Position numbers and translations under genes: made by a program. From IMG/VR virus record IMGVR_UViG_3300023214_000728, positions 1 through 27,644 of that record: DNA of 27,644 bases; one strand, 5' to 3'. Shown here one piece after another: positions 3,020 to 25,773 of the stretch (the stretch's first letter is position 1; each line of letters opens with the position of its first letter). Under the pieces are notes generated by a model. The model worked only from the letters and a program-made list of their open reading frames with translations. It did no database searches and had not been told where the DNA came from. This stretch comes from a virus. Taxonomy: Duplodnaviria; Caudoviricetes.

Positions 3020-3742
3020 TTATCTACGGTCCATGCCGGGGTACAACAACTTAACCTGGTCAGACTGCCAGAACTCGAATGTCTCCATATCCAGTAGCGA
3101 CAGTTTTCCGTGCCAGCCAGCACCAGTATCCATGTTTGTTACGTCACAGATAGTCCATGGTTCTTCCACATCTAACCCCATCGTGGACGTATGGCCTATG
3201 AACGTATGGTCTACGTGAGGCACAAATTCTGTGGTGTTTCCCACGTGTTGAGATTGCCCAACACATGCGTACCACATAGACCTGTCCCACGTGAGTTCTT
3301 CTGTGCTCAGGCGCGATACATACTCATCACTACACCTGGTTGGTATCCCAGCGTGTACTATAAGGTGTGTTTCATCCCCCACATCAACATACATATAGTC
3401 GCGCAGGTTTCTAGCAAACTTCCTGTGGCGGTCGAACAACGTACCACCCACGCCTTCATATGAGTCTAGCGTGGCTCGCCCGCCCTGTTGCGTCCACACC
3501 CGGGGCGTTGCACCATAATCAAGCCAGCACCTCCACCATACGTCATGGTTGCCGATCACTCCGCAGAAATTCGGCAGGGTTCTCAAGAACTCTATAACCT
3601 CAAACGATTCACTCCAACCGTCTACATAGTCGCCCACCGCATATAGAGTATCGCCGCTAGGGTCGAAGTTGGCTCTATCTAGCACCTGTTCCAGTGCTCT
3701 GTAACCACCATGTATATCACCGACCACCAGTTTCCTAGACAT
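3020..3742 (-). CDS. Metallophosphoesterase, PPP/lambda NinI/ApaH-like (Ser/Thr phosphatase family)
   Basis: Motifs GDIHG, GDYVDG, GNHD, HAG, GHT and DTGAG appear in the canonical order. Confidence 0.93.
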   Translation of the reverse strand: MSRKLVVGDIHGGYRALEQVLDRANFDPSGDTLYAVGDYVDGWSESFEVIEFLRTLPNFCGVIGNHDVWWRCWLDYGATPRVWTQQGGRATLDSYEGVGGTLFDRHRKFARNLRDYMYVDVGDETHLIVHAGIPTRCSDEYVSRLSTEELTWDRSMWYACVGQSQHVGNTTEFVPHVDHTFIGHTSTMGLDVEEPWTICDVTNMDTGAGWHGKLSLLDMETFEFWQSDQVKLLYPGMDRR

Positions 3743-4001
3743 GATCTTCTAGGTACCTTTCCACGGGGTCATATAGCACATCAAATAAAGCCTCCACATC
3801 ATATGAAACGTCGCTGGAATGTGCTATCGTTTTGGCAAACTTTTTCATCCTACGTGCTATGATCTTCTTTCTGGACCCCTTGCTCATGTCACGCATCTCT
3901 GCTACACTCGCCCCGAATCTGCTAACGAGTGCGCTACACAGCGCTTCGTCAGATGAGTCTACAATGTGAGAGTACACACCGATACGCTTAAACGTAGACA
4001 C
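3735..4001 (-). CDS. Hypothetical protein (88 aa)
   Basis: Fills the gap exactly. Its GTG start overlaps the upstream TAG (TAGTG), and its stop overlaps the downstream ATG region. Confidence 0.65.
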   Translation of the reverse strand: MSTFKRIGVYSHIVDSSDEALCSALVSRFGASVAEMRDMSKGSRKKIIARRMKKFAKTIAHSSDVSYDVEALFDVLYDPVERYLEDHV

Positions 4002-4585
4002 TAATCGACCTCCGACAGACGACTCAGGAGGTGTCGGGTTTCTTCCTGTCCAATCTCGGGAACAAGGACAGCCTCGACCTCCTGTATACTTTCTGATTTA
4101 CCGATTGCGTCTATAGCTTCGTGAGACAGATGGTGCACAAGGTGTTCCAGAGAATGTGAGTGCTTGGTTTCTTTGGGTGCATCCAACCCTTCGATGTCCA
4201 CAATCTTGGATATTATCTTCAGCCTCGTGTTCATGAGCCCAGAGATTTCGTTTGGTGATGCGCCGCCCCTCCCCCTTGCTTTTGCGAGTTCGTTTGTCAG
4301 GTCCTGTAGGTCGGATGCCAGAATGTCAAGTATTCGTTCACGTCCGAAGTCGAGGCTGTGGTCCGAACGTATCTCCTCCTCGACGGTCTCGATGTCACGT
4401 TGCAGTGCGTCATAAGACCACAGTATGTTGTCATCTGAGGATTCTATAGCATCTACAACCGTGTTCTTGAAACCGTAACCCTTCTTATACCCCTTGGCGA
4501 ACAGCCAGCGTATTACTTCGCGCCTGAGTTCAGCGTGGTGTCTCTGGTCTTCGCGCTCCAGCTTACTTAGGTCAGCCTCCGGCAA
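4001..4585 (-). CDS. Probable terminase small subunit (HTH + helical oligomerisation region)
   Basis: N-terminal HTH-like segment (WSYDALQRDIETV), helical middle and a LKIISKIVDIEGLDAPKE motif typical of TerS-like proteins. It lies between the ParB genes and TerL. TTG start. Confidence 0.6.
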   Translation of the reverse strand: MPEADLSKLEREDQRHHAELRREVIRWLFAKGYKKGYGFKNTVVDAIESSDDNILWSYDALQRDIETVEEEIRSDHSLDFGRERILDILASDLQDLTNELAKARGRGGASPNEISGLMNTRLKIISKIVDIEGLDAPKETKHSHSLEHLVHHLSHEAIDAIGKSESIQEVEAVLVPEIGQEETRHLLSRLSEVD

Positions 4586-5204
4586 TGTCTACCAACTCCC
4601 CTTTTAGGCGATCAAAGAACTCTCTGACCACATCGTCTTTCGCCATGCCACCCTCGATCTTCATTCTCCCCCATTGATGCAACCGCTCTGCAACGTCCGG
4701 CTGTAGAGAATAGCGTTCGCCGCCAACAATCAGGCTAGGGGCAAACTGTGGCGGTGGCTCAGGTGATGGGGCAGCACGTAGATCGCTGTCAGGAACGATG
4801 GCGTCAGCCTTCATCAGCCCACGCACCTCTGACCGCAACAGGCCCGTAGGGGTAAGGTCTACGTCACGTTCATCTAGCCATACCACAACGTCACGCAACT
4901 TACCCTCGTCCCATTTCCCTGATACCGCATCAGAATACAGCGTGAGGTGTAACGACATAAGCCGCCCCTCGTCCCAGCCTTCAGCGGGCAATATTAGTGC
5001 TTCTACGTATTCATAGCCAAGATCCCTCATGGCATATACATATTCCATGCCCCAGACAACCTCGTTGGCATCTGACACCAGGATTGGCTCAACTTGCCCG
5101 AATGTACTCAAGAACGCCACGCACGAGTCGTGTGTTTCCTGATGGAACTTGCGTGGGGTGCCCGGTAATTCTGTTATGTCATATATAGGCAGAGACTCAA
5201 CCAC
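4572..5204 (-). CDS. ParB/Sulfiredoxin-like domain protein, degenerate
   Basis: TPRKF...FGQVEPILVSDANEVVWGMEY..AMRDLG...GKWDEGKL follows the ParB-N fold pattern, but GHxR is replaced by GMEY. Confidence 0.75.
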   Translation of the reverse strand: MVESLPIYDITELPGTPRKFHQETHDSCVAFLSTFGQVEPILVSDANEVVWGMEYVYAMRDLGYEYVEALILPAEGWDEGRLMSLHLTLYSDAVSGKWDEGKLRDVVVWLDERDVDLTPTGLLRSEVRGLMKADAIVPDSDLRAAPSPEPPPQFAPSLIVGGERYSLQPDVAERLHQWGRMKIEGGMAKDDVVREFFDRLKGELVDIAGG

Positions 5205-5796
5205 CTATAACCCCCTCTGTCGCCATATCAACTACGGCCTCTTCGTCTACACCGATCTGGTCAGAGATCACCATTATGGAAGAAAGAATGTCTTCTGCAA
5301 TGTCTACACCAAGGTTCGCATACATGCCTCTCCAGCCCATTCTACCAAGATCGGATCCGGGAACAAGGTTGGATGGCTTCGCCACGAAGGACTCAAGGCC
5401 AGTCGCACCGCGTAGTTGCGGGTCGTGTATTGCTCCTAGTGCCGCCTCAAGCGCCGTGGGTGACCAGTTCTTCCTGCCTTCCCCTATGCGGTTGAGTGCA
5501 ACGTTCAGGACACGCTCTTTGTCTTCGGGTAGATCTACAAAAACCACCCTCGCGTACTTCTCTTCACCCTCTTGTAGTGATTTCACCCTCTGATGACCGC
5601 CGACGATGTTTCCTGTGCGCTTGTTCACAACCAGCATACGCACCTGACCGAACTCCGCAAGGCTGTTTGAGATCATTTCGAAGTCTGGATCGCCCGGTCG
5701 CAAGTCTTCACGCGGGTTGTAGTCTGCCCCCATGTCTACCAGGTCCGACACCTCTACCAGCGCACATTCCACTAAACCGGCCTCAAGCACTGGCAT
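5197..5796 (-). CDS. ParB/Sulfiredoxin-like N-terminal domain protein
   Basis: ADYNPREDLRPGD...SLAEFGQV..LVVNKRTGNIVGGHQRVK...ERVLNVALNRI is the classic phage ParB-N motif. The exact start is uncertain. Confidence 0.9.
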   Translation of the reverse strand: MPVLEAGLVECALVEVSDLVDMGADYNPREDLRPGDPDFEMISNSLAEFGQVRMLVVNKRTGNIVGGHQRVKSLQEGEEKYARVVFVDLPEDKERVLNVALNRIGEGRKNWSPTALEAALGAIHDPQLRGATGLESFVAKPSNLVPGSDLGRMGWRGMYANLGVDIAEDILSSIMVISDQIGVDEEAVVDMATEGVIGG

Positions 5797-6491
5797 CCGG
5801 GGTAGCTACAATTTTCTTCCTTGGGCTGGACGGCCTGACAGACGCGGTCCTTTGGCGGGACGCTTCCATAGGTTTGACCCATAGTTGGCGGTGACGGTGA
5901 AATGACAGTAGTATACACGTGGGTTCTAGTTTCATCAAACCCTACTGCGTCGGACCCTGAGAAAACCACGTCCGGAGTTTCGTTTTTAATATCGTCAGCC
6001 ACGACACCTTGCCACTCACTGATGTCATCCAAATCCGGCTTGAGCGTTAGTAGCTCATGAAGACACGCTGCGTTCCACAGCGCATGAGCCCAGTGTTCCA
6101 GCCCTGATTTCGGGTCTGTTAATCTACCCCACTGTTGCTTGTGTGGAAGACACGCCTTTAGGTGGCGGTACATGGAGTTCACGAGCGTAGTTGCGCTCTG
6201 GCCCTCATACCAATCTAAGGGTGCATATTTATCAGCACCCCCGGTCGATACGTGGGCCAGTTTTTCTAGCGCACGATCTACGCCCATCTCGTTTATGATG
6301 ACACGACAAACCTCAAGACCCATGTTTGCGATACCTTCTGTATCAGCGTTCAATATTGCGTCGTGTGCTATCATCATGCAATCTGCAATCGGGCCATCGA
6401 ACGTATGGCCCACGAACAGGAGGGGTGCCCAAACCAACTGCGGCTTCCCCTCGGAATAACGAGTCCCGCCGGACTTTTCCGTATTCACCAT
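5772..6491 (-). CDS. DUF5664 / dATP-dGTP diphosphohydrolase N-terminal-like domain protein
   Basis: G.RYSEGKP..., GADKYAPLDW.EG, SMYRHL and DPKSGLEHWAHALWN match this family's pattern. Confidence 0.85.
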   Translation of the reverse strand: MVNTEKSGGTRYSEGKPQLVWAPLLFVGHTFDGPIADCMMIAHDAILNADTEGIANMGLEVCRVIINEMGVDRALEKLAHVSTGGADKYAPLDWYEGQSATTLVNSMYRHLKACLPHKQQWGRLTDPKSGLEHWAHALWNAACLHELLTLKPDLDDISEWQGVVADDIKNETPDVVFSGSDAVGFDETRTHVYTTVISPSPPTMGQTYGSVPPKDRVCQAVQPKEENCSYPGCQCLRPV

Positions 6492-17450: not shown

Positions 17451-17488
17451 AAAAAGCAAGGGCCAGAATAGCCGAAGCCATTCTAGCC
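17451..17488 (-). terminator. Intrinsic terminator after the lysis cassette
   Basis: The minus strand reads GGCTAGAATGGC-TTCG-GCTATTCTGGCC, a 12-bp stem with two G-U pairs and a cUUCGg loop, followed by CTTGCTTTTT. Confidence 0.8.
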
Positions 17489-17513: not shown

Positions 17514-18257
17514 TCAGAAGATCCTTGCGACCTGTACGATTATGCACCCCATAGCAGCCGACTCTACAGCCTTACGAACATCGGAATCGTTCATGTAAGA
17601 AAGTGCGCCCAACCCAACCCCGGCACCTATACACCCGATATTATACGGATCCTTTATCCATGGTTCAGACGGTGGCTCGTTGGGCACAAAGGTCACCCTC
17701 GGGATGCGTAACGTCACCTTGTCAGAACTCGGTTCAGCAAATACAACCTTCCTACCGTCAGGCAAGTCTGTGTGCAGAAGCTCGCCCGATATTTCAACCT
17801 GATACTTCCATAGGCACGATGCACTAAGCACCTCACACCGGACGCTAAGTTCCACCACCTCATCGGAATACTCAGATGTTATGCTGTCCACCACGGCAAG
17901 GCTATCTACACCACGGACGACAACTGCTGGTGTAGTAGCCGTATCAGCGGCAGAGCCCTCGATGTCTATAACGGTTCCGCCATCTGCGCCAGTCGCTTCA
18001 AGGCGTGCTATGGCGTCGTTTAGCGCACCAACGGTATCGTCTCTTGAGATCCTGAGATCCTCGAAGCTTGATACCTGTTCGCCAACCCTGAACTCAAGGC
18101 TGTCGATTTCGGCTTCGGCAAGGAATAGTTCGGATGCTGCCTCATCTCGTGCATCCTGCTCTTGTTGAACCCGATACATCTGATAGCCAAGGGCGACAAC
18201 AAGAACCCCAATCACAACCAGCAGTATCTTGTTCAACATGCTCACCCTTGCCTCCAT
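17514..18257 (-). CDS. Spanin-like (Rz-like) membrane protein: N-terminal TM, coiled coil, beta-rich region, hydrophobic C-terminus
   Basis: Signal anchor ILLVVIGVLVVALGY followed by a coiled coil. It is the last gene of the lysis cassette. The start may be ATG 18239. Confidence 0.6.
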   Translation of the reverse strand: MEARVSMLNKILLVVIGVLVVALGYQMYRVQQEQDARDEAASELFLAEAEIDSLEFRVGEQVSSFEDLRISRDDTVGALNDAIARLEATGADGGTVIDIEGSAADTATTPAVVVRGVDSLAVVDSITSEYSDEVVELSVRCEVLSASCLWKYQVEISGELLHTDLPDGRKVVFAEPSSDKVTLRIPRVTFVPNEPPSEPWIKDPYNIGCIGAGVGLGALSYMNDSDVRKAVESAAMGCIIVQVARIF

Positions 18258-18455: not shown

Positions 18456-18980
18456 TCAGAAACCAGTCCAAATCCTGGGTGATTTGTTGTCCTCGTGGGC
18501 ACTCAAGTCGATGTGCAACCCTGATGCCTCAGACGCATGGTCCGGCCACCCGTCTTCGCCTCTACGGTCCTTACCTGGGTACGCGCCCAACCTCACCGCC
18601 CCACTTCGGATCGCATAGATCATGATAACGGCGCGTTCGTAGGAATTAAAGACCTGTAGATCAACTGCTCTACACGGCCTCTTTTTGTGTGCAGACTTGG
18701 ATACGCCTGTATCAGAATCCAGCGGGCGAGCATCGTCATTTATCCTGAGCGGAACATCCCAATCAATATTACCCTCTTGATACTCGTCATGGATGCAGAT
18801 TCTCACACCGTACAGCCACCGCAGGAAATGTACATCCATCTCCCACGGGTTGTTGAATTCACTTGCCATGAAACCAGGATAACCTGTATCACTATCGGGC
18901 GCTATTTCGTCCCATACACTGTGACCTTCTGTAGCGAACTCTGGATCAACCTGCGCCAGAGGGGAGTCCCACTTATTCAT
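18456..18980 (-). CDS. Endolysin, peptidase M15 (Hedgehog/DD-peptidase fold)
   Basis: RINDDAR...SAHKKRPCRAVDL...RLGAY...LHIDL supplies the S-x-H, AxD and HxD zinc ligands. Lies downstream of the holin. Confidence 0.88.
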   Translation of the reverse strand: MNKWDSPLAQVDPEFATEGHSVWDEIAPDSDTGYPGFMASEFNNPWEMDVHFLRWLYGVRICIHDEYQEGNIDWDVPLRINDDARPLDSDTGVSKSAHKKRPCRAVDLQVFNSYERAVIMIYAIRSGAVRLGAYPGKDRRGEDGWPDHASEASGLHIDLSAHEDNKSPRIWTGF

Positions 18981-19221
18981 CAGCTCCCCCGCTCTTTGAC
19001 GACGTGATCGCCTTCAGCACCCCTGACAGGTCGATGGATTTCATCCACGCCAACGTCGTCTTCGGTGACACAAATGTAGCACCCATCGTCAAGATTATGA
19101 TACCAACTACATCTCTACCATAGAATACAAGGACGGCACCAAACAGAGATGCGGCCAAGCCATACGCCGTCCTCTTGAGGCGATCCCTCATGTACTCCTT
19201 GCTCTCGTCATTCGTTCTCAT
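18973..19221 (-). CDS. Putative holin (two TM helices)
   Basis: 82 aa with two hydrophobic helices and charged termini, immediately upstream of the endolysin. Confidence 0.65.
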   Translation of the reverse strand: MRTNDESKEYMRDRLKRTAYGLAASLFGAVLVFYGRDVVGIIILTMGATFVSPKTTLAWMKSIDLSGVLKAITSSKSGGADE

Positions 19222-19816
19222 ATACTGTCCCCAGTTCGTATAAGTTTCTTCCGTCTACCGGCTTGATCGTGCCGAAATAACCGACCAACACACCGTACTC
19301 ATCTTTAATCGGATACGCATGAGATACTACCGGATGTTCTCCCGTAACCGTCTTGATGTCATAGGTCGCCAGAAACTCTCTGCCCTCCCTGACGGCGGCT
19401 TTCCAGTCTGCGTCTACGGCATCGCGATCTCTCTCACTCACAAACTGTAGCCACCCGGTGCCGACAACCTGTTCAAACTGCATCCCGGTAACGGACAACA
19501 GGGTTCTGTTCACATATTCCGTGTCCCCTTTTTGGTCACAACGATACACCCCATATGTGAGATCCTGTAGCAACGCAATCTGCCCACCACCAACAACTAT
19601 AAGCTGTCGCTCGATTCGGTCAATCGCATCTTTCATAGACTTGCCACCGTTGGGCGTAAGCTCTTCCTCGACCCTCTTCAGCACCCTGGCTATGGATATG
19701 ATATAGCGTATAGCGGCCATGAACTTCTTGCCACCTACCCACAGTGCGCCAATAGCAGCCGAAATTCCGGTGATGATCCCAACCCAATCAGGAATGCCAG
19801 AAAAAGAACCTAGCAC
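19208..19816 (-). CDS. Membrane-anchored PAS-domain protein (TM + PNGGxS motif + PAS)
   Basis: GTG start after an AGGAGG SD. TM WVGIITGISAAIGALWVGG, then LTPNGGKSMKDAIDRIE, then PAS signature GVYRCDQKGDTEYVN...TG...VGTGWLQFVSERDR...PIKDEYGVLVGYFGT. Confidence 0.88.
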   Translation of the reverse strand: MLGSFSGIPDWVGIITGISAAIGALWVGGKKFMAAIRYIISIARVLKRVEEELTPNGGKSMKDAIDRIERQLIVVGGGQIALLQDLTYGVYRCDQKGDTEYVNRTLLSVTGMQFEQVVGTGWLQFVSERDRDAVDADWKAAVREGREFLATYDIKTVTGEHPVVSHAYPIKDEYGVLVGYFGTIKPVDGRNLYELGTVYENE

Positions 19817-19930: not shown

Positions 19931-22015
19931 TCACTGTGTGCAGAACACGGATTGTGACGCAGAGTCCTTGGGGGTATCGCCCTGATACCTGACCTCTATG
20001 TTGATCGTATCCCCGCCAGAGCCACCGGGTTCAATATCTGTGACCGTTTGTGGCGAGGAACTATGCGATACGCTTGTCCACGAACTCCACGTTCCTCCGT
20101 TCACGTTCGTCCTGTATTCCCAACCCTGTGCGCGTTCCGTGGAGTTGCTGCCAGTATGGTCCACGGTGAGGTCCATATTGATCGTCGGACAATGGCTCGC
20201 GTCCTGACTGAACCCGGTGATCTGTGGTGCGTCTACGTGTGTACGTGCTTCTTCGGTTGTGCTCCACACCCACGCGCTATCCGGGTGCGGAGAACTTGGA
20301 TCAGCCTCATTGCGTCCACGTGCCCTCCAAGAGTAGTTCGTGTCAGAAGCAAGCCCGGCTTCTTCGGTATCACCAGCAAGCGTATCGTTTTCGTTCGGCG
20401 TGCCGGACCCGGAAACGTAGTACACCTCAAAGTCGTCTACGTCCTGTCCCCCAATCGTGTATTCTATGGTGTCGCCAGTGTCGTCTTTTGGTGCGGGTAC
20501 ACTCAGCCAGTCTACAGACGACGGAGCAAGCGGCTTCGTCCACATGCCGGTTAGCTCGTTTGACCACGAACTCGCATCACCACAATCGTTAACCTCACGG
20601 ATCTGTGCATGGAACTCATCGTCATCGTTCAGTCCAGATATGGTTACCGATGTTGCAGACCCAGCCACCGTATCTGTAGCCGAGTCGCTGAACGCCACAC
20701 CGACAGCGCGAACCTCGATCTCTACATTATCAGTAACCCCTGAGCCACTGAGCGTCCAGTTGAGGTCGAAGCCATCGGTCGTTTCGGTTGTGGCGCTGTC
20801 GAGTGTCGGTGCGCCGGGCTCGGTTTCTATGCCCTCAGCGGACGTGGGCAGGCTCTCTGTCTCGCCTGCGACGTTTATCGCAACGACCCGCCACCTATAT
20901 TGCTTTCCTGACGTTAACGGTGAATGCGTGAACGTCATGTTGAAGTCCTGAGTGAACTGTGCAGGGTCTAGTTCGTTGCCAGCGGTAGACCACGATGCGG
21001 GCCACGGGTCGCCACATGCCCTATTCTGGAACTCGATTCTGTACGAGTCTGCGTTAGCCGGAACGCCCTCATCCCACTGTATCGTCCTAGACGTACCAGT
21101 TCCCGTGACACTATCTATCGTCGGCGCACCCGGCTCCCTGATCTCGTTAACAAAACTGTCGCTTGTGAACGGAGCATCGTCAGAGTCTTCGGTTCTTCCT
21201 TGTGCAGCAACGTGTATAGTCTGGTTATGTGACCACGATGAGTCGCCTGTCGAGGTTGTGCCTGAGACGATCTGCGATTCCGTGAAATCACCCAGAATGC
21301 TTGCGGCATTGAATTCGGATAGTGTCGTTATCGCAGCAGTATCCCAAACTAATCTTATTTCCGTCGCGTTTGCTGGCATACTGGTTAAGCTGAAGTCACC
21401 CTGCTGGTCTTCACTTGCATCGTCCTGTAATACATCGAACGCACCCGGTGTTTCCGTCACCCTGGACTTGCGGGTGCTTACATCCGATGATGCCTCTTTC
21501 CATGGCGCTAATGTCGATCCCGCAGCAATACCCACACCACCGTCCGCATCAATATGCATCGCATAACGCACTCGGTATGTCGTGTCCGGAGACAGACCAG
21601 TGATTGTCATGCCAGTAGCCGAACGAGACGCATTCGCAGGCGAAGAGTCAGAATACCCGCCAGGCGTCCCGCCCACTACAACCGCTTGCTCGAACTGCCA
21701 TTCGTCAAAAGGGTAACCGTCACCGTCCGTGACAACCCCGCGATCATAAAATGAGTTCGTGATAGACGGCCACGACAGCAGAAGTTCAGTGTCCTGCCCA
21801 TCGGTGTTCTTCGGGTGCTGACTTACCGTCAGTATGTCGGCTTCCTTGAGGTCGGGCGGCCATATCAGTTTCCACGAAACACCACCATCGGGTGACTGTC
21901 TAACTATCACCAGAGAATAGCTTGTGCCGCCATCCTCAGAAACCTTAAGGTGGCCGAGAGCGTTGCTGAACGTCGCTCCTCCGTCCACTGAAATCTTAAC
22001 CTCACCAGCGGCCAC
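19931..22015 (-). CDS. Virion tail/adsorption protein with multiple fibronectin type III repeats
   Basis: Repeated FN3 signatures (TITGLSPDTTYRVR, LTSGKQYRWRVVAIN, TISGLNDDDEFHAQIR, GLASDTNYSWRAR) and three N-terminal S.DGG.. boxes. GTG start in a TAGTG overlap (the track start is 22036). Confidence 0.85.
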   Translation of the reverse strand: MAAGEVKISVDGGATFSNALGHLKVSEDGGTSYSLVIVRQSPDGGVSWKLIWPPDLKEADILTVSQHPKNTDGQDTELLLSWPSITNSFYDRGVVTDGDGYPFDEWQFEQAVVVGGTPGGYSDSSPANASRSATGMTITGLSPDTTYRVRYAMHIDADGGVGIAAGSTLAPWKEASSDVSTRKSRVTETPGAFDVLQDDASEDQQGDFSLTSMPANATEIRLVWDTAAITTLSEFNAASILGDFTESQIVSGTTSTGDSSWSHNQTIHVAAQGRTEDSDDAPFTSDSFVNEIREPGAPTIDSVTGTGTSRTIQWDEGVPANADSYRIEFQNRACGDPWPASWSTAGNELDPAQFTQDFNMTFTHSPLTSGKQYRWRVVAINVAGETESLPTSAEGIETEPGAPTLDSATTETTDGFDLNWTLSGSGVTDNVEIEVRAVGVAFSDSATDTVAGSATSVTISGLNDDDEFHAQIREVNDCGDASSWSNELTGMWTKPLAPSSVDWLSVPAPKDDTGDTIEYTIGGQDVDDFEVYYVSGSGTPNENDTLAGDTEEAGLASDTNYSWRARGRNEADPSSPHPDSAWVWSTTEEARTHVDAPQITGFSQDASHCPTINMDLTVDHTGSNSTERAQGWEYRTNVNGGTWSSWTSVSHSSSPQTVTDIEPGGSGGDTINIEVRYQGDTPKDSASQSVFCTQ

Positions 22016-25000
22016 TAAGACACTTCCTTGCCCCAAAGAATCGTGAGGTCGCTTGGCTTGCCTGTGGGTGCTGTACCCTGAACGAAGATGAAGTGCGTTG
22101 TTTCGACCTGTGGGTTGCCGTCATCGTCTGCGCTCAGGCCATGGTCCTGAACTGGCGAAAAGTTTTGTATGAACTCTGTATCGTTACCAGAGGTGAAGTT
22201 CGCCCCGTCATGCTTTTTCATCCTGACGCCGCCAGAAGCATCGTCGCTCGGAATAGCCCACTCAACGCGCTTCGCTGTGCCCTGGTTTGCGTTACCGCCG
22301 CCCCTGTCTACCCACGGAGTAATACTTATGAACGGGGTCGCAGTCGAGCCACCATCTGACCCCGAAAGCGAAACGCCTGATATATTGAACGTTACGGTGC
22401 GTACAGATCCCGTGGAACCCAGCGTGACCGTGTCTACGGTCTGGTCCGTCATGATGAGATCACCCTCACCATCTGATCTTTGAATCACAAGCTCGTCCGT
22501 GTCCGGACCCACCTCGACAGACACCTTTGGCTGCCAGTTGTTTACTGTGGAATAAAACATTCGCGCATCCAGTATATCGACATAGTTACCTTGTTCCCCT
22601 CCAGAACCGGGGGCCTCTATAACAATATCATATGCCTTGGCACTAGATACGCTGCCATCCTGTGTAGCAAAGTCGGTTGATGGTGTGCGATAGAACACTG
22701 CTCTGACGTATAACTTTTCTCCAGCACTGAGCGTCCAGTCTGTCGCCAGCGCAGAAAGGTCCTCTCTATGCGGGAACGATGCACCACTTACCTCGGTGCC
22801 ATCTGATGCACCAGTGGGGTTCTCGTGAGCCGTGTTGGATATATGCAGCCTCCACGAGCCCGTGTCTGAATCCTGTGCGTTAATAGACACGAACGGGATC
22901 CCGCCATCCTCGACTTCCCCGGTAATAGATCCAGTGGGTATAGCGTTGTCATCAACACGTATGCGCTGATGTTTCGGAGCGCCGTCTGCATTCGTGAATG
23001 CGAAGTTGCCGTCAGCATCCTCTGCGTTGAATACAATGTCTTTTTCTGTACCGCCGTCAGCAGGTTTGGTGACCGCTACCTCCGTAACTACCGGGTCTGT
23101 GGTCTGCCCTGTCTTTGTGAAGCCACCAGAATCCCAGTCTGGGTCAGATACACCTGCATCTATAACCTTGTAACCGAAGTCCACGGTAGCAGCACGACTC
23201 ACTGAGATAAATCGCACGCCCTCTTTTGTCGGATCGTCTGGAATAAAAGGGTGCCACGTGAGCTGTACAGCACTGCCAGCAGCACCGCTTGTTGATCTGG
23301 CGACCCTCAGAGGCCCTTCGGTGCCGCCTGAGTCGCCACCGTCCACATCTGAGTAGGCACGTACCGCTGCCTTCACCGTGGCCGCTGGAGAGCCTGTGAG
23401 GACCTGTATCTGGTCGTCCGTGGACAGCGTTCCTTCTGTACCGCCGCCCATACCGTCTACATGCGCCGGGTCGTCGGGCTCAGAGCCATCGGTGGTTACA
23501 TTGTACCGGATGCTTTGTGCTGCCAGTGTCCTGAACGGGTTGAGATACCAGTCAGAGCCATCCTGATCCAAGATGGGCTGACAGTCTACAGTAAGCCCGG
23601 TGTTCACGCGCTTGAACTCTATCAGCGCCCCGTCGCGCCCTGCACCAGACGCTTCGCTGAACGCGACAACCGTAATAAACGCAGTATCGCCTAAGTCGGG
23701 GGCAATTACATCGCCCTCTGTGGGCTGAAAGTCGTCTTCTTCGGCAGAGTTTTGTGTAGCCCCGGAACCCAAAACAAACGATCTGGTGGGCTGGGCTGTA
23801 TCGTCTATGCTGTACTTAATCGACTGCCCGATTTCGTTCAACCGATACTTGATGTGTACGCTGCCAGCCTCGTCCAACCACGCATCTATCCAGTCGAACA
23901 TCGGCGCGGTGTTTTTTATAGGGTCTGCATCGTCACGACCCGGGTGTGCGATCTCAACATCCGTCAACGTCTTCGGGCGACTCTCTAGCGTGGTCTTCTG
24001 AACGTGTCCCTGAACAATGTCGCGCTCAAGCTTCATCACCCTGAGATCAACGTCGGAAGCCAACTCAGCGTCGATTACCCGTACCTTGCCGCCAAGGGTC
24101 AGTTCATCGAACTCATATACGTCCGGGTTGATGCCCTCAACGTCGATGAGAGACACAGCATAAGACACGTCTGCGTTTCGCTTATCAAGCAGTTCGTTTG
24201 CGCTTCTGCGCCACAGTTCGTTTGCCGCGTTCTCTGCAACGAAAACCTTAGCGTTTGGGGCGTTGGTTATCATCGCTGAGTCGAGGTACCATTCCGCAGC
24301 GCCGCCGTCCGACAACACGTTGATCTTCACCGTGCCGGACTCCAGCAGTATGCCTTCGATCCTTAGGTCAACCCACTGCCCCGTTTCCTCCGTCCACGCC
24401 TTTTTTGTCGGTGGCGGGAATGTGCCCATGGTGCTGTGTTCTAGCTCAAGTCTAACGGCACCAGAAACCACCCACAGGCTAATCAGCGCAGAATAGTATG
24501 GCTGATCGCTAGACGGGGATATGTTGATCGCATCCGATGATACACCATCACCCGATGCAGACGAAACCAGGTGCCAAGAAGAACCACCGACCCGCGTGAA
24601 GTTCGCACTCGTATTCTCTTCTGACGTAGATAGCGTTCCGACCAACGACCAATTATCAGCAACACCACCTGTGAATGAATCGAGCTTCGGTGTACCGATG
24701 ATGTTGCTGGCTTGTATCAGGTCATCAGCAGTTAGTGTGCCGGGGATGGCACCGAGAGACGATACGGAAGCAGAATCTTCGAGATATGTAACATGGTCAC
24801 CAGAAGAGTTCCTGAATATACGTAGCCTGTCGCCTACCGAGAAGTTGCCGGGTGTGCCGACTGTCAGCGTGCCGGGATTCGCGGAGTCGCTGATCTGCTG
24901 TAGCCCGGTACCGTCCTTGTTGCCGACATAAAGGCCGTTCAGAGCATCGTCCTCCCATACTGGGGTGCCCTTAAGAGTGAGCGGGCTATTGGACGTTACC

Positions 25001-25773
25001 TCCCACGCATTGCTGCCAAGCGTGAGCCTGTTGCCGGGTTCGCCGCCACCCTTACCGTACATCCTGTTCGCTGTCTCGCGTATATCATCCTCACGAGAGA
25101 AGCTTTTGATGTTCTTGCCCACGGTAACGAATGGCTTGGTCGCACCAGAACCCACCTCATCCAACAGGCTGATGTCATAGTCGCTAGGGCCGTTGCGCAG
25201 AACCTGAAGCTCGGTGTCGGTGAGCTTTGCAAGTTGCCTCAGAGCGCCCAGCGGGGTGAAGAAATCAAACGTGAACTCTTCCAGTTCGTCTGTCGGGTCA
25301 ATCGTGCCGATGCTGAAGTATGATGCAGCGTCGTTCAGGATATACTGATTGATGATCTCGGTTGGCGTGAAGTTGAGGATCGTGAAATCAGGCTGTACCA
25401 GACCAGAAGACTCTACACGCTCAATCAACCCCGGCCTGTTCAACTCGAATATAACGCCCTCTGCCTCTACGCTTGCGAGCTTCTTGTTGTCCTGCTTCCT
25501 GCCTTTCTTGATGTCTACTACTCGGTACTCAGCTACGGTGTCATCGTCCCACAGAACCCTGAAAACCACGCCCTCTGTAATTCCGCCAGAAGCGAAACTC
25601 ACGGAATCAACCGGAATGCTCAACATCAGGCGGTCGTCACCGTTCACCTCTTCGAGCAATGATGCTGCACTGAGGTCGCGTAGGATAGCACCGGGCGACA
25701 ACGACAGCACGGAACCACCCGCTGCCTCTATGTCACTCCACAATTCTATTCTATTTAGTCTCGGTGTAGCCAC
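22015..25773 (-). CDS. Large tail tip/baseplate hub protein (siphophage Tal/host-specificity-like) with inserted carbohydrate-binding-like domain
   Basis: The N-terminal region resembles prophage tail proteins (TVGKNIKSFSREDD..TANRMYGKG; LTLGGKVRVID). It has an internal CBM-like segment (GQWVDL..WYLDSAMI) and a beta-rich acidic C-terminus. Confidence 0.8.
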   Translation of the reverse strand: MATPRLNRIELWSDIEAAGGSVLSLSPGAILRDLSAASLLEEVNGDDRLMLSIPVDSVSFASGGITEGVVFRVLWDDDTVAEYRVVDIKKGRKQDNKKLASVEAEGVIFELNRPGLIERVESSGLVQPDFTILNFTPTEIINQYILNDAASYFSIGTIDPTDELEEFTFDFFTPLGALRQLAKLTDTELQVLRNGPSDYDISLLDEVGSGATKPFVTVGKNIKSFSREDDIRETANRMYGKGGGEPGNRLTLGSNAWEVTSNSPLTLKGTPVWEDDALNGLYVGNKDGTGLQQISDSANPGTLTVGTPGNFSVGDRLRIFRNSSGDHVTYLEDSASVSSLGAIPGTLTADDLIQASNIIGTPKLDSFTGGVADNWSLVGTLSTSEENTSANFTRVGGSSWHLVSSASGDGVSSDAINISPSSDQPYYSALISLWVVSGAVRLELEHSTMGTFPPPTKKAWTEETGQWVDLRIEGILLESGTVKINVLSDGGAAEWYLDSAMITNAPNAKVFVAENAANELWRRSANELLDKRNADVSYAVSLIDVEGINPDVYEFDELTLGGKVRVIDAELASDVDLRVMKLERDIVQGHVQKTTLESRPKTLTDVEIAHPGRDDADPIKNTAPMFDWIDAWLDEAGSVHIKYRLNEIGQSIKYSIDDTAQPTRSFVLGSGATQNSAEEDDFQPTEGDVIAPDLGDTAFITVVAFSEASGAGRDGALIEFKRVNTGLTVDCQPILDQDGSDWYLNPFRTLAAQSIRYNVTTDGSEPDDPAHVDGMGGGTEGTLSTDDQIQVLTGSPAATVKAAVRAYSDVDGGDSGGTEGPLRVARSTSGAAGSAVQLTWHPFIPDDPTKEGVRFISVSRAATVDFGYKVIDAGVSDPDWDSGGFTKTGQTTDPVVTEVAVTKPADGGTEKDIVFNAEDADGNFAFTNADGAPKHQRIRVDDNAIPTGSITGEVEDGGIPFVSINAQDSDTGSWRLHISNTAHENPTGASDGTEVSGASFPHREDLSALATDWTLSAGEKLYVRAVFYRTPSTDFATQDGSVSSAKAYDIVIEAPGSGGEQGNYVDILDARMFYSTVNNWQPKVSVEVGPDTDELVIQRSDGEGDLIMTDQTVDTVTLGSTGSVRTVTFNISGVSLSGSDGGSTATPFISITPWVDRGGGNANQGTAKRVEWAIPSDDASGGVRMKKHDGANFTSGNDTEFIQNFSPVQDHGLSADDDGNPQVETTHFIFVQGTAPTGKPSDLTILWGKEVS

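Follow-up and report, generated by a model that had tools for sequence, protein, structure and literature searches.

A protein in which a single transmembrane (TM) helix and a helical stalk carry a C-terminal PAS domain is encoded by the first gene of a cluster that continues with a membrane ORF, a peptidase gene and a spanin-like gene in a 27.6-kb IMG/VR provirus fragment (the window). Our tentative reading is that this protein is a LysF1b-like holin partner that aids the lysis trigger, with the PAS domain, which is predicted to be cytoplasmic, acting as a regulatory input. Lysis time determines burst size and phage fitness, and in the systems compared below it depends on the accumulation of holin, on membrane potential, on partner proteins or on superinfection. 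If the lysis trigger does carry a PAS domain, host physiology would have a direct and testable means of influencing when lysis occurs. A literature search by title and abstract start, with most subscription journals outside its coverage, returned no description of this arrangement, in line with an earlier sequence-only reading of this DNA that knew of no characterised example, and no paper combining GAF with a holin.

The PAS-bearing gene and its neighbours

The window contains tail, lysis-like, replication and terminase genes, as judged by Pfam and PHROG profile matches. The TM-stalk-PAS gene (19208..19816, on the minus strand like all window features described here) opens with a GTG codon 5 nt past an AGGAGGG ribosome site and encodes 202 aa. 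Its product begins with one TM helix (residues 11-29; 19730..19786), located by hydropathy and predicted from the K/R count of the family to be N-out/C-in, followed by a helix-kink-helix motif from E52 to I68 (ELTPNGGKSMKDAIDRI; 19613..19663), whose register is shared with the DUF2746/LysF1b motif, and by a PAS domain (residues 81-187; 19256..19576). The AlphaFold2 model (mean pLDDT 84.7, with residues 81-190 averaging 92-98 per block of 10) has helices at 10-27, 29-52 and 57-83, with a break at PNGG, and then a complete PAS fold connected to the anchor via one unbroken helix; a continuous helix likewise links PAS domains to their anchors in signalling proteins. The PAS matches lie above the Pfam cut-off for PAS_4 (E 2e-8), PAS_3 (3e-7) and PAS_9 (1e-6) and above the cut-off for TIGR00229, and a Foldseek search of the PDB with the model hit known PAS domains (E about 1e-7). 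No output domain, such as a kinase or cyclase, lies C-terminal to the PAS domain in the 202-aa protein. Hydropathy, Pfam and AlphaFold2 thus agree with the sequence-only reading, which had described one TM helix, a helical segment and a single, complete PAS domain lacking any output domain, and the PAS fold that it had proposed to confirm by structure prediction was recovered by AlphaFold2 and matched to known PAS structures by Foldseek.

The next ORF encodes an 82-aa membrane protein (18973..19221), a candidate holin by its size, hydrophobicity and position, and overlaps the following gene by 8 nt. A hydropathy scan finds one TM segment in it, by eye two short TM segments flank an RD turn, and it has no match in Pfam, PHROG or NCBIfam. 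The overlap of the PAS gene with the holin start that had been claimed amounts to 14 nt if Met1 is the start, and is lost if the alternative start Met11 (19191), which is also preceded by a ribosome-site-like AAGGAG, is used. The two starts (19191-19221), each with a ribosome-site-like stretch, are reminiscent of dual-start holins. The third gene (18456..18980) encodes a 174-aa candidate endolysin with an M15 peptidase fold: in an Atlas structure search its model reached TM-scores of 0.62-0.64 to Peptidase_M15_3 models, with no HMM match, no PDB sequence match and, by hydropathy, no TM segment. It is followed by a gene for a 247-aa protein (17514..18257) with an N-terminal TM segment by hydropathy and a weak likeness to Rz-type i-spanins (phrog_214, E 7e-4); no o-spanin ORF with a lipobox was found on the minus strand between 17300 and 18500. 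A terminator-like hairpin of 12 pairs (17461..17488) lies 3' of the spanin-like gene and likely marks the end of the cassette; it comes from a consensus scan of the window that gave five sites against 4.1 expected from shuffles, and a promoter scan of the window gave fewer sites than in shuffles.

Upstream of the PAS gene stand tail genes for a prophage-tail-domain protein and an FN3-repeat protein (19931..25773; Pfam, PHROG). Elsewhere in the window, a gene with a dATP/dGTP diphosphohydrolase domain and two adjoining ParB-like genes (5772-6491 and 4572-5796), followed by phosphatase and terminase genes, form a block that may be a sign of DNA base modification.

A lysis-cassette reading of the window is reasonable, with the holin and spanin labels taken from anatomy and position. 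In the holin-endolysin-spanin cluster that had been claimed, the endolysin gains the M15 fold and the spanin a weak Rz-like match, whereas the holin has no match in any library. Searches with the 82-aa, 174-aa and 247-aa proteins found no sequence relatives, and so yielded no PAS-less sister cassette of the window phage for comparison. A co-folding run that paired the 82-aa ORF with the PAS protein, using a 21-row alignment for the latter, scored 0.00 with its controls not folded, and it carries no weight for or against an interaction.

A viral family and its loci

TM-stalk-PAS proteins form a widespread viral family. A word-index search with the window protein gave two relatives, and three once an alignment was used; a single-sequence viral scan found no relatives, and neither did tblastn of cultured phages with two PAS members as query. 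In the ESM Atlas, seven of the ten matches listed were PAS clusters of 183-229 aa that are 99-100% viral, one of them with 1142 members, and the full-length matches in BFVD carry only the label 'PAS domain, uncultured Caudovirales phage'. Three viral scans together gave at least 91 full-length matches in at least 264 loci; at 80% identity the full-length matches collapse to at least 47 sequences, a number that includes the window and the two halves of a single split gene, and at least 45 IMG/VR lineages besides the window carry the family. Among cellular genomes (8 of 64 parts scanned), one of 120 pattern matches was a true member (L297). The split gene (L210:5739-6349, minus strand), which immediately precedes a portal gene, is broken within its PAS domain, either by a frameshift or by an error of assembly. 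Much commoner than the PAS form are PAS-less TM+NGG proteins of about 65-110 aa: at least about 3300-4000 IMG/VR stretches match NGG-type patterns, compared with at least about 160 for a stricter NGG+PAS pattern. The quick tree that we built of the family is mostly unresolved at its base, and the number of origins of the lysis context is not readable from it.

Members have in common the TM helix, the stalk, the kink motif and a terminal PAS domain. Since K and R are commoner after the TM helix than before it in 41 of 45 members among the matches listed, the protein is predicted to be N-out/C-in, with its PAS domain in the cytoplasm. The domain ends the chain (a median of two residues past the PAS match in 43 phage domains), and the C-terminal DxT motif, which couples cellular PAS domains to a downstream helix, is present in none of these 43 compared with 127 of 154 cellular domains. 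The cysteine motif of LOV flavin light sensors, of the NCRFL type, occurs in none of the 47 family sequences, and no cofactor motif was found. The domain is retained intact across the family at 20-32% identity. A PAS-only alignment proved too divergent for a locus scan, so a degenerate pattern was used that fixes E, D, G and W and thereby biases conservation at those positions; we therefore cite only profile columns that it leaves unfixed, at which the phage domains differ from 819 cellular ones in Arg 60 (82% vs 12%), Trp 36 (98% vs 51%), Arg 45 (87% vs 42%) and Trp 52 (73% vs 31%). Conserved residues of the window protein include Arg146, Trp122 and Trp138. A profile search of 1.84 billion representatives returned 290,175 proteins at E up to 0.001 and places the phage PAS close to the repeats of large multi-PAS proteins, which dominate the matches; a single family member (P0134) is among the best 150. 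This 385-aa protein has a tandem layout, in which TM helix, NGG stalk and PAS are followed by another kink, of degenerate sequence (KNGKS), and another PAS, which suggests that stalk and PAS duplicate as a unit.

A survey of homologue neighbourhoods, which the sequence-only reading had suggested, gave a divided picture. It covered 42 relatives with flanks (three without flanks were dropped), three genes on each side and 173 of 178 neighbour clusters, with genes called by our own greedy procedure and long proteins cut to 520 aa. Most of the 42 PAS-bearing loci have no recognisable lysis gene among these neighbours. L297, the member from the cellular genomes, has a further full cassette: its tail genes are followed by a TIGR02594 protein, which we take to be the lysin, the PAS gene, a holin-like hydrophobic ORF of 118 aa and a pair of ORFs that resemble spanins, with both of these labels given by reading. 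Partial cassettes with the PAS form occur in L086, L163 and L167. A wall hydrolase named by the libraries stands among the neighbours in 3 of 42 loci, or 5 of 42 when DUF5675 and a sub-cut-off C92 match are counted; the loci with hydrolase-type neighbours are L086, L163, L102, L167 and L090. Elsewhere the PAS gene adjoins terminase or portal genes (7 of 42), follows ribonucleotide reductase genes (4 of 42) or lies beside named tail or baseplate genes (4 of 42: L087, L095, L191 and L217), and the rest are mixed. It directly precedes the portal gene in L171, L207, L210 and L223, and in L207 and L223 genes for PagL-like lipid A deacylases stand two genes upstream of it.

The PAS gene is followed by a small TM gene at 12 of the 42 loci, compared with 23 of 294 background genes, and eight of the 12 belong to one clade. 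Members of this clade have a 69-79-aa membrane gene at +1, followed in six of them by the gene for a 306-308-aa protein without a library match, in which papain-like motifs were recognised by reading two sequences. The resulting conserved block, made up of a sigma-factor-like gene, a gene for a ~220-aa protein, the TM-PAS gene, a ~70-aa membrane gene and the gene for the 307-aa protein with papain-like motifs (L094, L157, L169, L187, L193 and L218), may be a lysis cassette that has so far gone unrecognised; in L090 the 307-aa protein is replaced by a permuted papain-like (C92) gene at +1. In L088 and L215 the PAS gene is preceded by four others, which encode a small TM protein, a protein that begins with a hydrophobic segment, a lipoprotein-like protein and a patatin phospholipase, possibly as a lipase-containing lysis block. 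Several carrier contigs exceed 100 kb, and lysis genes may be scattered in them; in D29 a 1-TMD regulator stands apart from the lysins. Part of the PAS-bearing family may also have a non-lysis role.

Remote likeness of the anchor and the proposed role of the protein

The lysis connection is clearer for the PAS-less relatives. A PAS-less query against cultured phages gave eight records that represent five actinophages, and in four of these five an annotated endolysin lies within two genes of the NGG gene, as in Streptomyces phage mu1/6, where endolysin and holin genes are followed by the NGG gene (gp52). In the fifth, the NGG gene has near it a 2-TM gene and the gene for an unannotated protein of the phrog_32486 type. 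Arthrobacter phage Sonali likewise carries a PAS-less NGG gene (gp22). A library-named endolysin lies within three genes in 4 of 16 PAS-less IMG/VR representatives, and five further ones have weak or motif-only endolysin candidates by reading. A rule for small TM gene neighbours, which is insensitive, picked out 3 of 16 PAS-less loci against a background of 8 of 129. The phrog_32486 family, whose listed function is unknown, adjoins NGG genes in L127, L141, L106 and L279 and shows metallopeptidase-like His/Asp motifs by reading; it is probably an unannotated endolysin family.

DUF2746 proteins carry a motif resembling the PNGG kink motif, which prompted a comparison with a set made up of D29 gp30 and 11 relatives picked from 60 matches listed. 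The consensus of the set, EQVxNSHxTNLRDDIDRL, aligns gap-free with the family's ExxPNGGSSLKDxIxRI, and several PAS members have a His at the position of the invariant DUF2746 His. In hhalign, the 12 proteins matched the PAS family with a probability of 90.4 (P 1.4e-6, pairwise and not database-corrected), with the motif in register, and the PAS-less family with 85.8%. Controls scored far lower: 30 shuffles of the motif columns reached at most 5.7, while Mu gp25 as a single sequence, two spanins and two holins stayed below 1 against the PAS family and reached up to 13% against the PAS-less family. Five single DUF2746-like proteins gave 17-82 against the PAS family, and the probability drops to 44 without the TM helix. 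When an HMM of the DUF2746-like set was run over 8426 ORFs, of which 113 carry the motif and 1806 a TM segment, motif-bearing ORFs filled the first 10 ranks and 23 of the first 25, though the best E to a family member was 0.0012; a motif-only HMM was weak (8 of the top 10 and 10 of the top 25). PF10874 itself had no match in the window, in residues 1-105 or in five cultured NGG proteins, although the positive controls D29 gp30 and PopTart gp33 passed its cut-off, and it was absent from the best 25 of 40 families for 16 PAS-less proteins. By profile likeness, then, the TM helix and stalk are a remote relative of DUF2746, not a member. This remote likeness and the lysis cassettes of the PAS-less cultured relatives support a lysis role for the TM+PNGGxS module, though not a linkage to lysis genes across the whole PAS-bearing family.

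Two DUF2746 proteins, LysF1b and LysA2b, have been tested as lysis regulators. LysF1b, which matches PF10874, is described in the available text of PMC13056207 as a 1-TMD, N-out/C-in protein that is triggerable by energy poisons and required for the activity of the 2-TMD LysF1a. For LysA2b (D29 gp30), also 1-TMD, N-out/C-in and open to triggering by energy poisons, the available text of bioRxiv 10.64898/2026.08.27.747656 reports that efficient lysis with a 2-TMD partner depends on it and that its gene sits among the minor tail genes of D29, apart from the lysins. Loss of LysF1b or LysA2b delays and cripples lysis, with no advance, according to the same parts of both sources.

These comparisons favour a 1-TM holin partner or activator over an antiholin as the best reading of the window protein. 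Its anchor would accumulate in the inner membrane late in infection and would then activate or join the small holin, so that the endolysin is released. The PAS domain likely serves as a regulatory input: because it ends the chain and has no DxT output motif, a change in it, caused by a ligand or a host protein, would travel backwards to the TM helix, first along helix 57-83 and then across the NGG kink, and shift the trigger point. The idea that oxygen, redox, light or nutrients may be sensed derives from the occurrence and conservation of this domain. It is a more doubtful proposition that many uncultured phages have a cytoplasmic PAS domain grafted on a LysF1b-type trigger, so that the timing of lysis would be dictated directly by a small molecule, or by redox conditions, within the infected cell; one polypeptide would then form a ligand-gated holin system whose signal runs back from PAS to anchor. 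If correct, the link would extend the LysF1b class (2026, actinophages) to a much wider viral family, and would suggest what is done by a small TM+NGG gene that is very common in phages and by phage proteins labelled only 'PAS domain'.

An unlikely alternative is a lysis membrane protein whose PAS domain does no sensing and is merely a structural dimerisation or spacer domain that fixes the trigger threshold. The retention of the full PAS core, its closeness to multi-PAS repeats, its family-specific conserved residues and the one continuous helix joining it to the anchor speak against this, whereas the absence of the LOV motif from all 47 sequences and the far greater abundance of PAS-less versions, which implies that the anchor works without PAS, speak for it, as does the T4 holin T, whose globular domain is described in the available text of PMC11413866 as mediating holin-holin and holin-antiholin contacts. 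In many relatives the scanned neighbours include portal, terminase, baseplate or reductase genes but none for lysis, and the PAS domain is very like the repeats of cellular sensors, both of which would suit a protein with no lysis role, either a membrane-tethered PAS decoy or adaptor for host sensor kinases or cyclases or a membrane tether for phage assembly; we give this a low probability, since the anchor module is lysis-linked in cultured phages, full cassettes exist in the window and L297, and the tested 1-TMD lysis regulator of D29 itself stands away from the lysins.

The sequence-only reading had suggested that the protein may be an antiholin or holin partner, by analogy with T4 T/RI/RIII. 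An antiholin that keeps the 82-aa holin inactive until the PAS domain releases it would accord with the position of the PAS gene directly before a holin-like gene in the window and in L297, and a phiKZ protein does act on the cytoplasmic domain of a holin, though it speeds lysis (available text of PMC12894885). The analogy nonetheless fits poorly: T4 T has the reverse of the topology predicted here, and lysis is delayed and crippled, not advanced, when the nearest tested relatives, which promote it, are lost. An antiholin is improbable. A virion structural or tail-associated protein is the least probable of these alternatives, and very improbable in itself: the gene follows tail genes in the window and stands among structural genes in several relatives, but the TM anchor has a positive-inside bias, and the structural analogue gp108 of phage phi19:1 is not among the structural proteins detected by MS in its record.

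Comparison with known systems

The globular domain of T4 T probably has a GAF fold, although a search of two papers did not turn this up. Like this class III holin, which has the antiholins RI and RIII, the window protein is a single-TM lysis protein candidate with a C-terminal globular domain, and a fold search weakly matched T-type holins (E 0.023 and 0.034). T is N-in/C-out with a periplasmic domain, however, and the window protein is predicted to be N-out/C-in with a cytoplasmic PAS; this opposite topology and the lack of a match to any holin PHROG set it apart from class III holins. The Mu releasin gp25 (DUF2730/PF10805) is similar in layout, with one TM helix, N-out/C-in topology and a helical tail (available text of PMC13056207), but it frees a SAR endolysin, whereas the window peptidase has no TM segment. 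Kinship with the releasin was rejected, as no profile similarity was detected (probability 0.5 with a single Mu sequence as query). In phiKZ, timing is tuned through the cytoplasmic domain of a single-TM lysis protein, the holin gp142, by the regulator gp143; gp142 differs in being N-in/C-out with a separate soluble regulator, and the available text of PMC12894885 does not mention PAS.

In fold and core residues the PAS domain resembles cellular PAS_3/PAS_4 sensors, such as the cytoplasmic PAS of CitA-type kinases (PDB 5fq1 and 8bjp), from which the window protein differs in having no kinase or cyclase output and no DxT motif and in ending with its PAS domain. Another match of the fold search was a protein from the cultured Cellulophaga phage phi19:1 (E 2e-5; 240 aa), identified by length as gp108, the sole 240-aa gene in the record. 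It has one TM helix, and its gene closes the series gp105-gp108 (L405:3167-4925), in which it comes after three genes for multi-TM proteins; the series stands where the tail module ends, and gp108 lies 1.5 kb from the lysozyme gene. Since gp108 has no profile similarity to the NGG TM-PAS family, its combination of a TM helix with a PAS-like domain in a lysis-like region seems to be independent.

The closest likeness is to LysF1b (Girr, NormanBulbieJr) and LysA2b (D29 gp30), with which the window protein shares one N-terminal TM helix of predicted N-out/C-in topology, basic residues past it, a long cytoplasmic helix, the motif in register and a small membrane-protein neighbour. The two tested proteins have 88-124 aa and a highly charged tail with no globular domain, whereas the 202-aa window protein has a PAS domain instead of the tail and does not reach the PF10874 cut-off. 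They are known from actinophages, whereas the spanin-like gene of the window suggests a diderm host, in whose phage the PAS-bearing gene precedes the holin-like gene.
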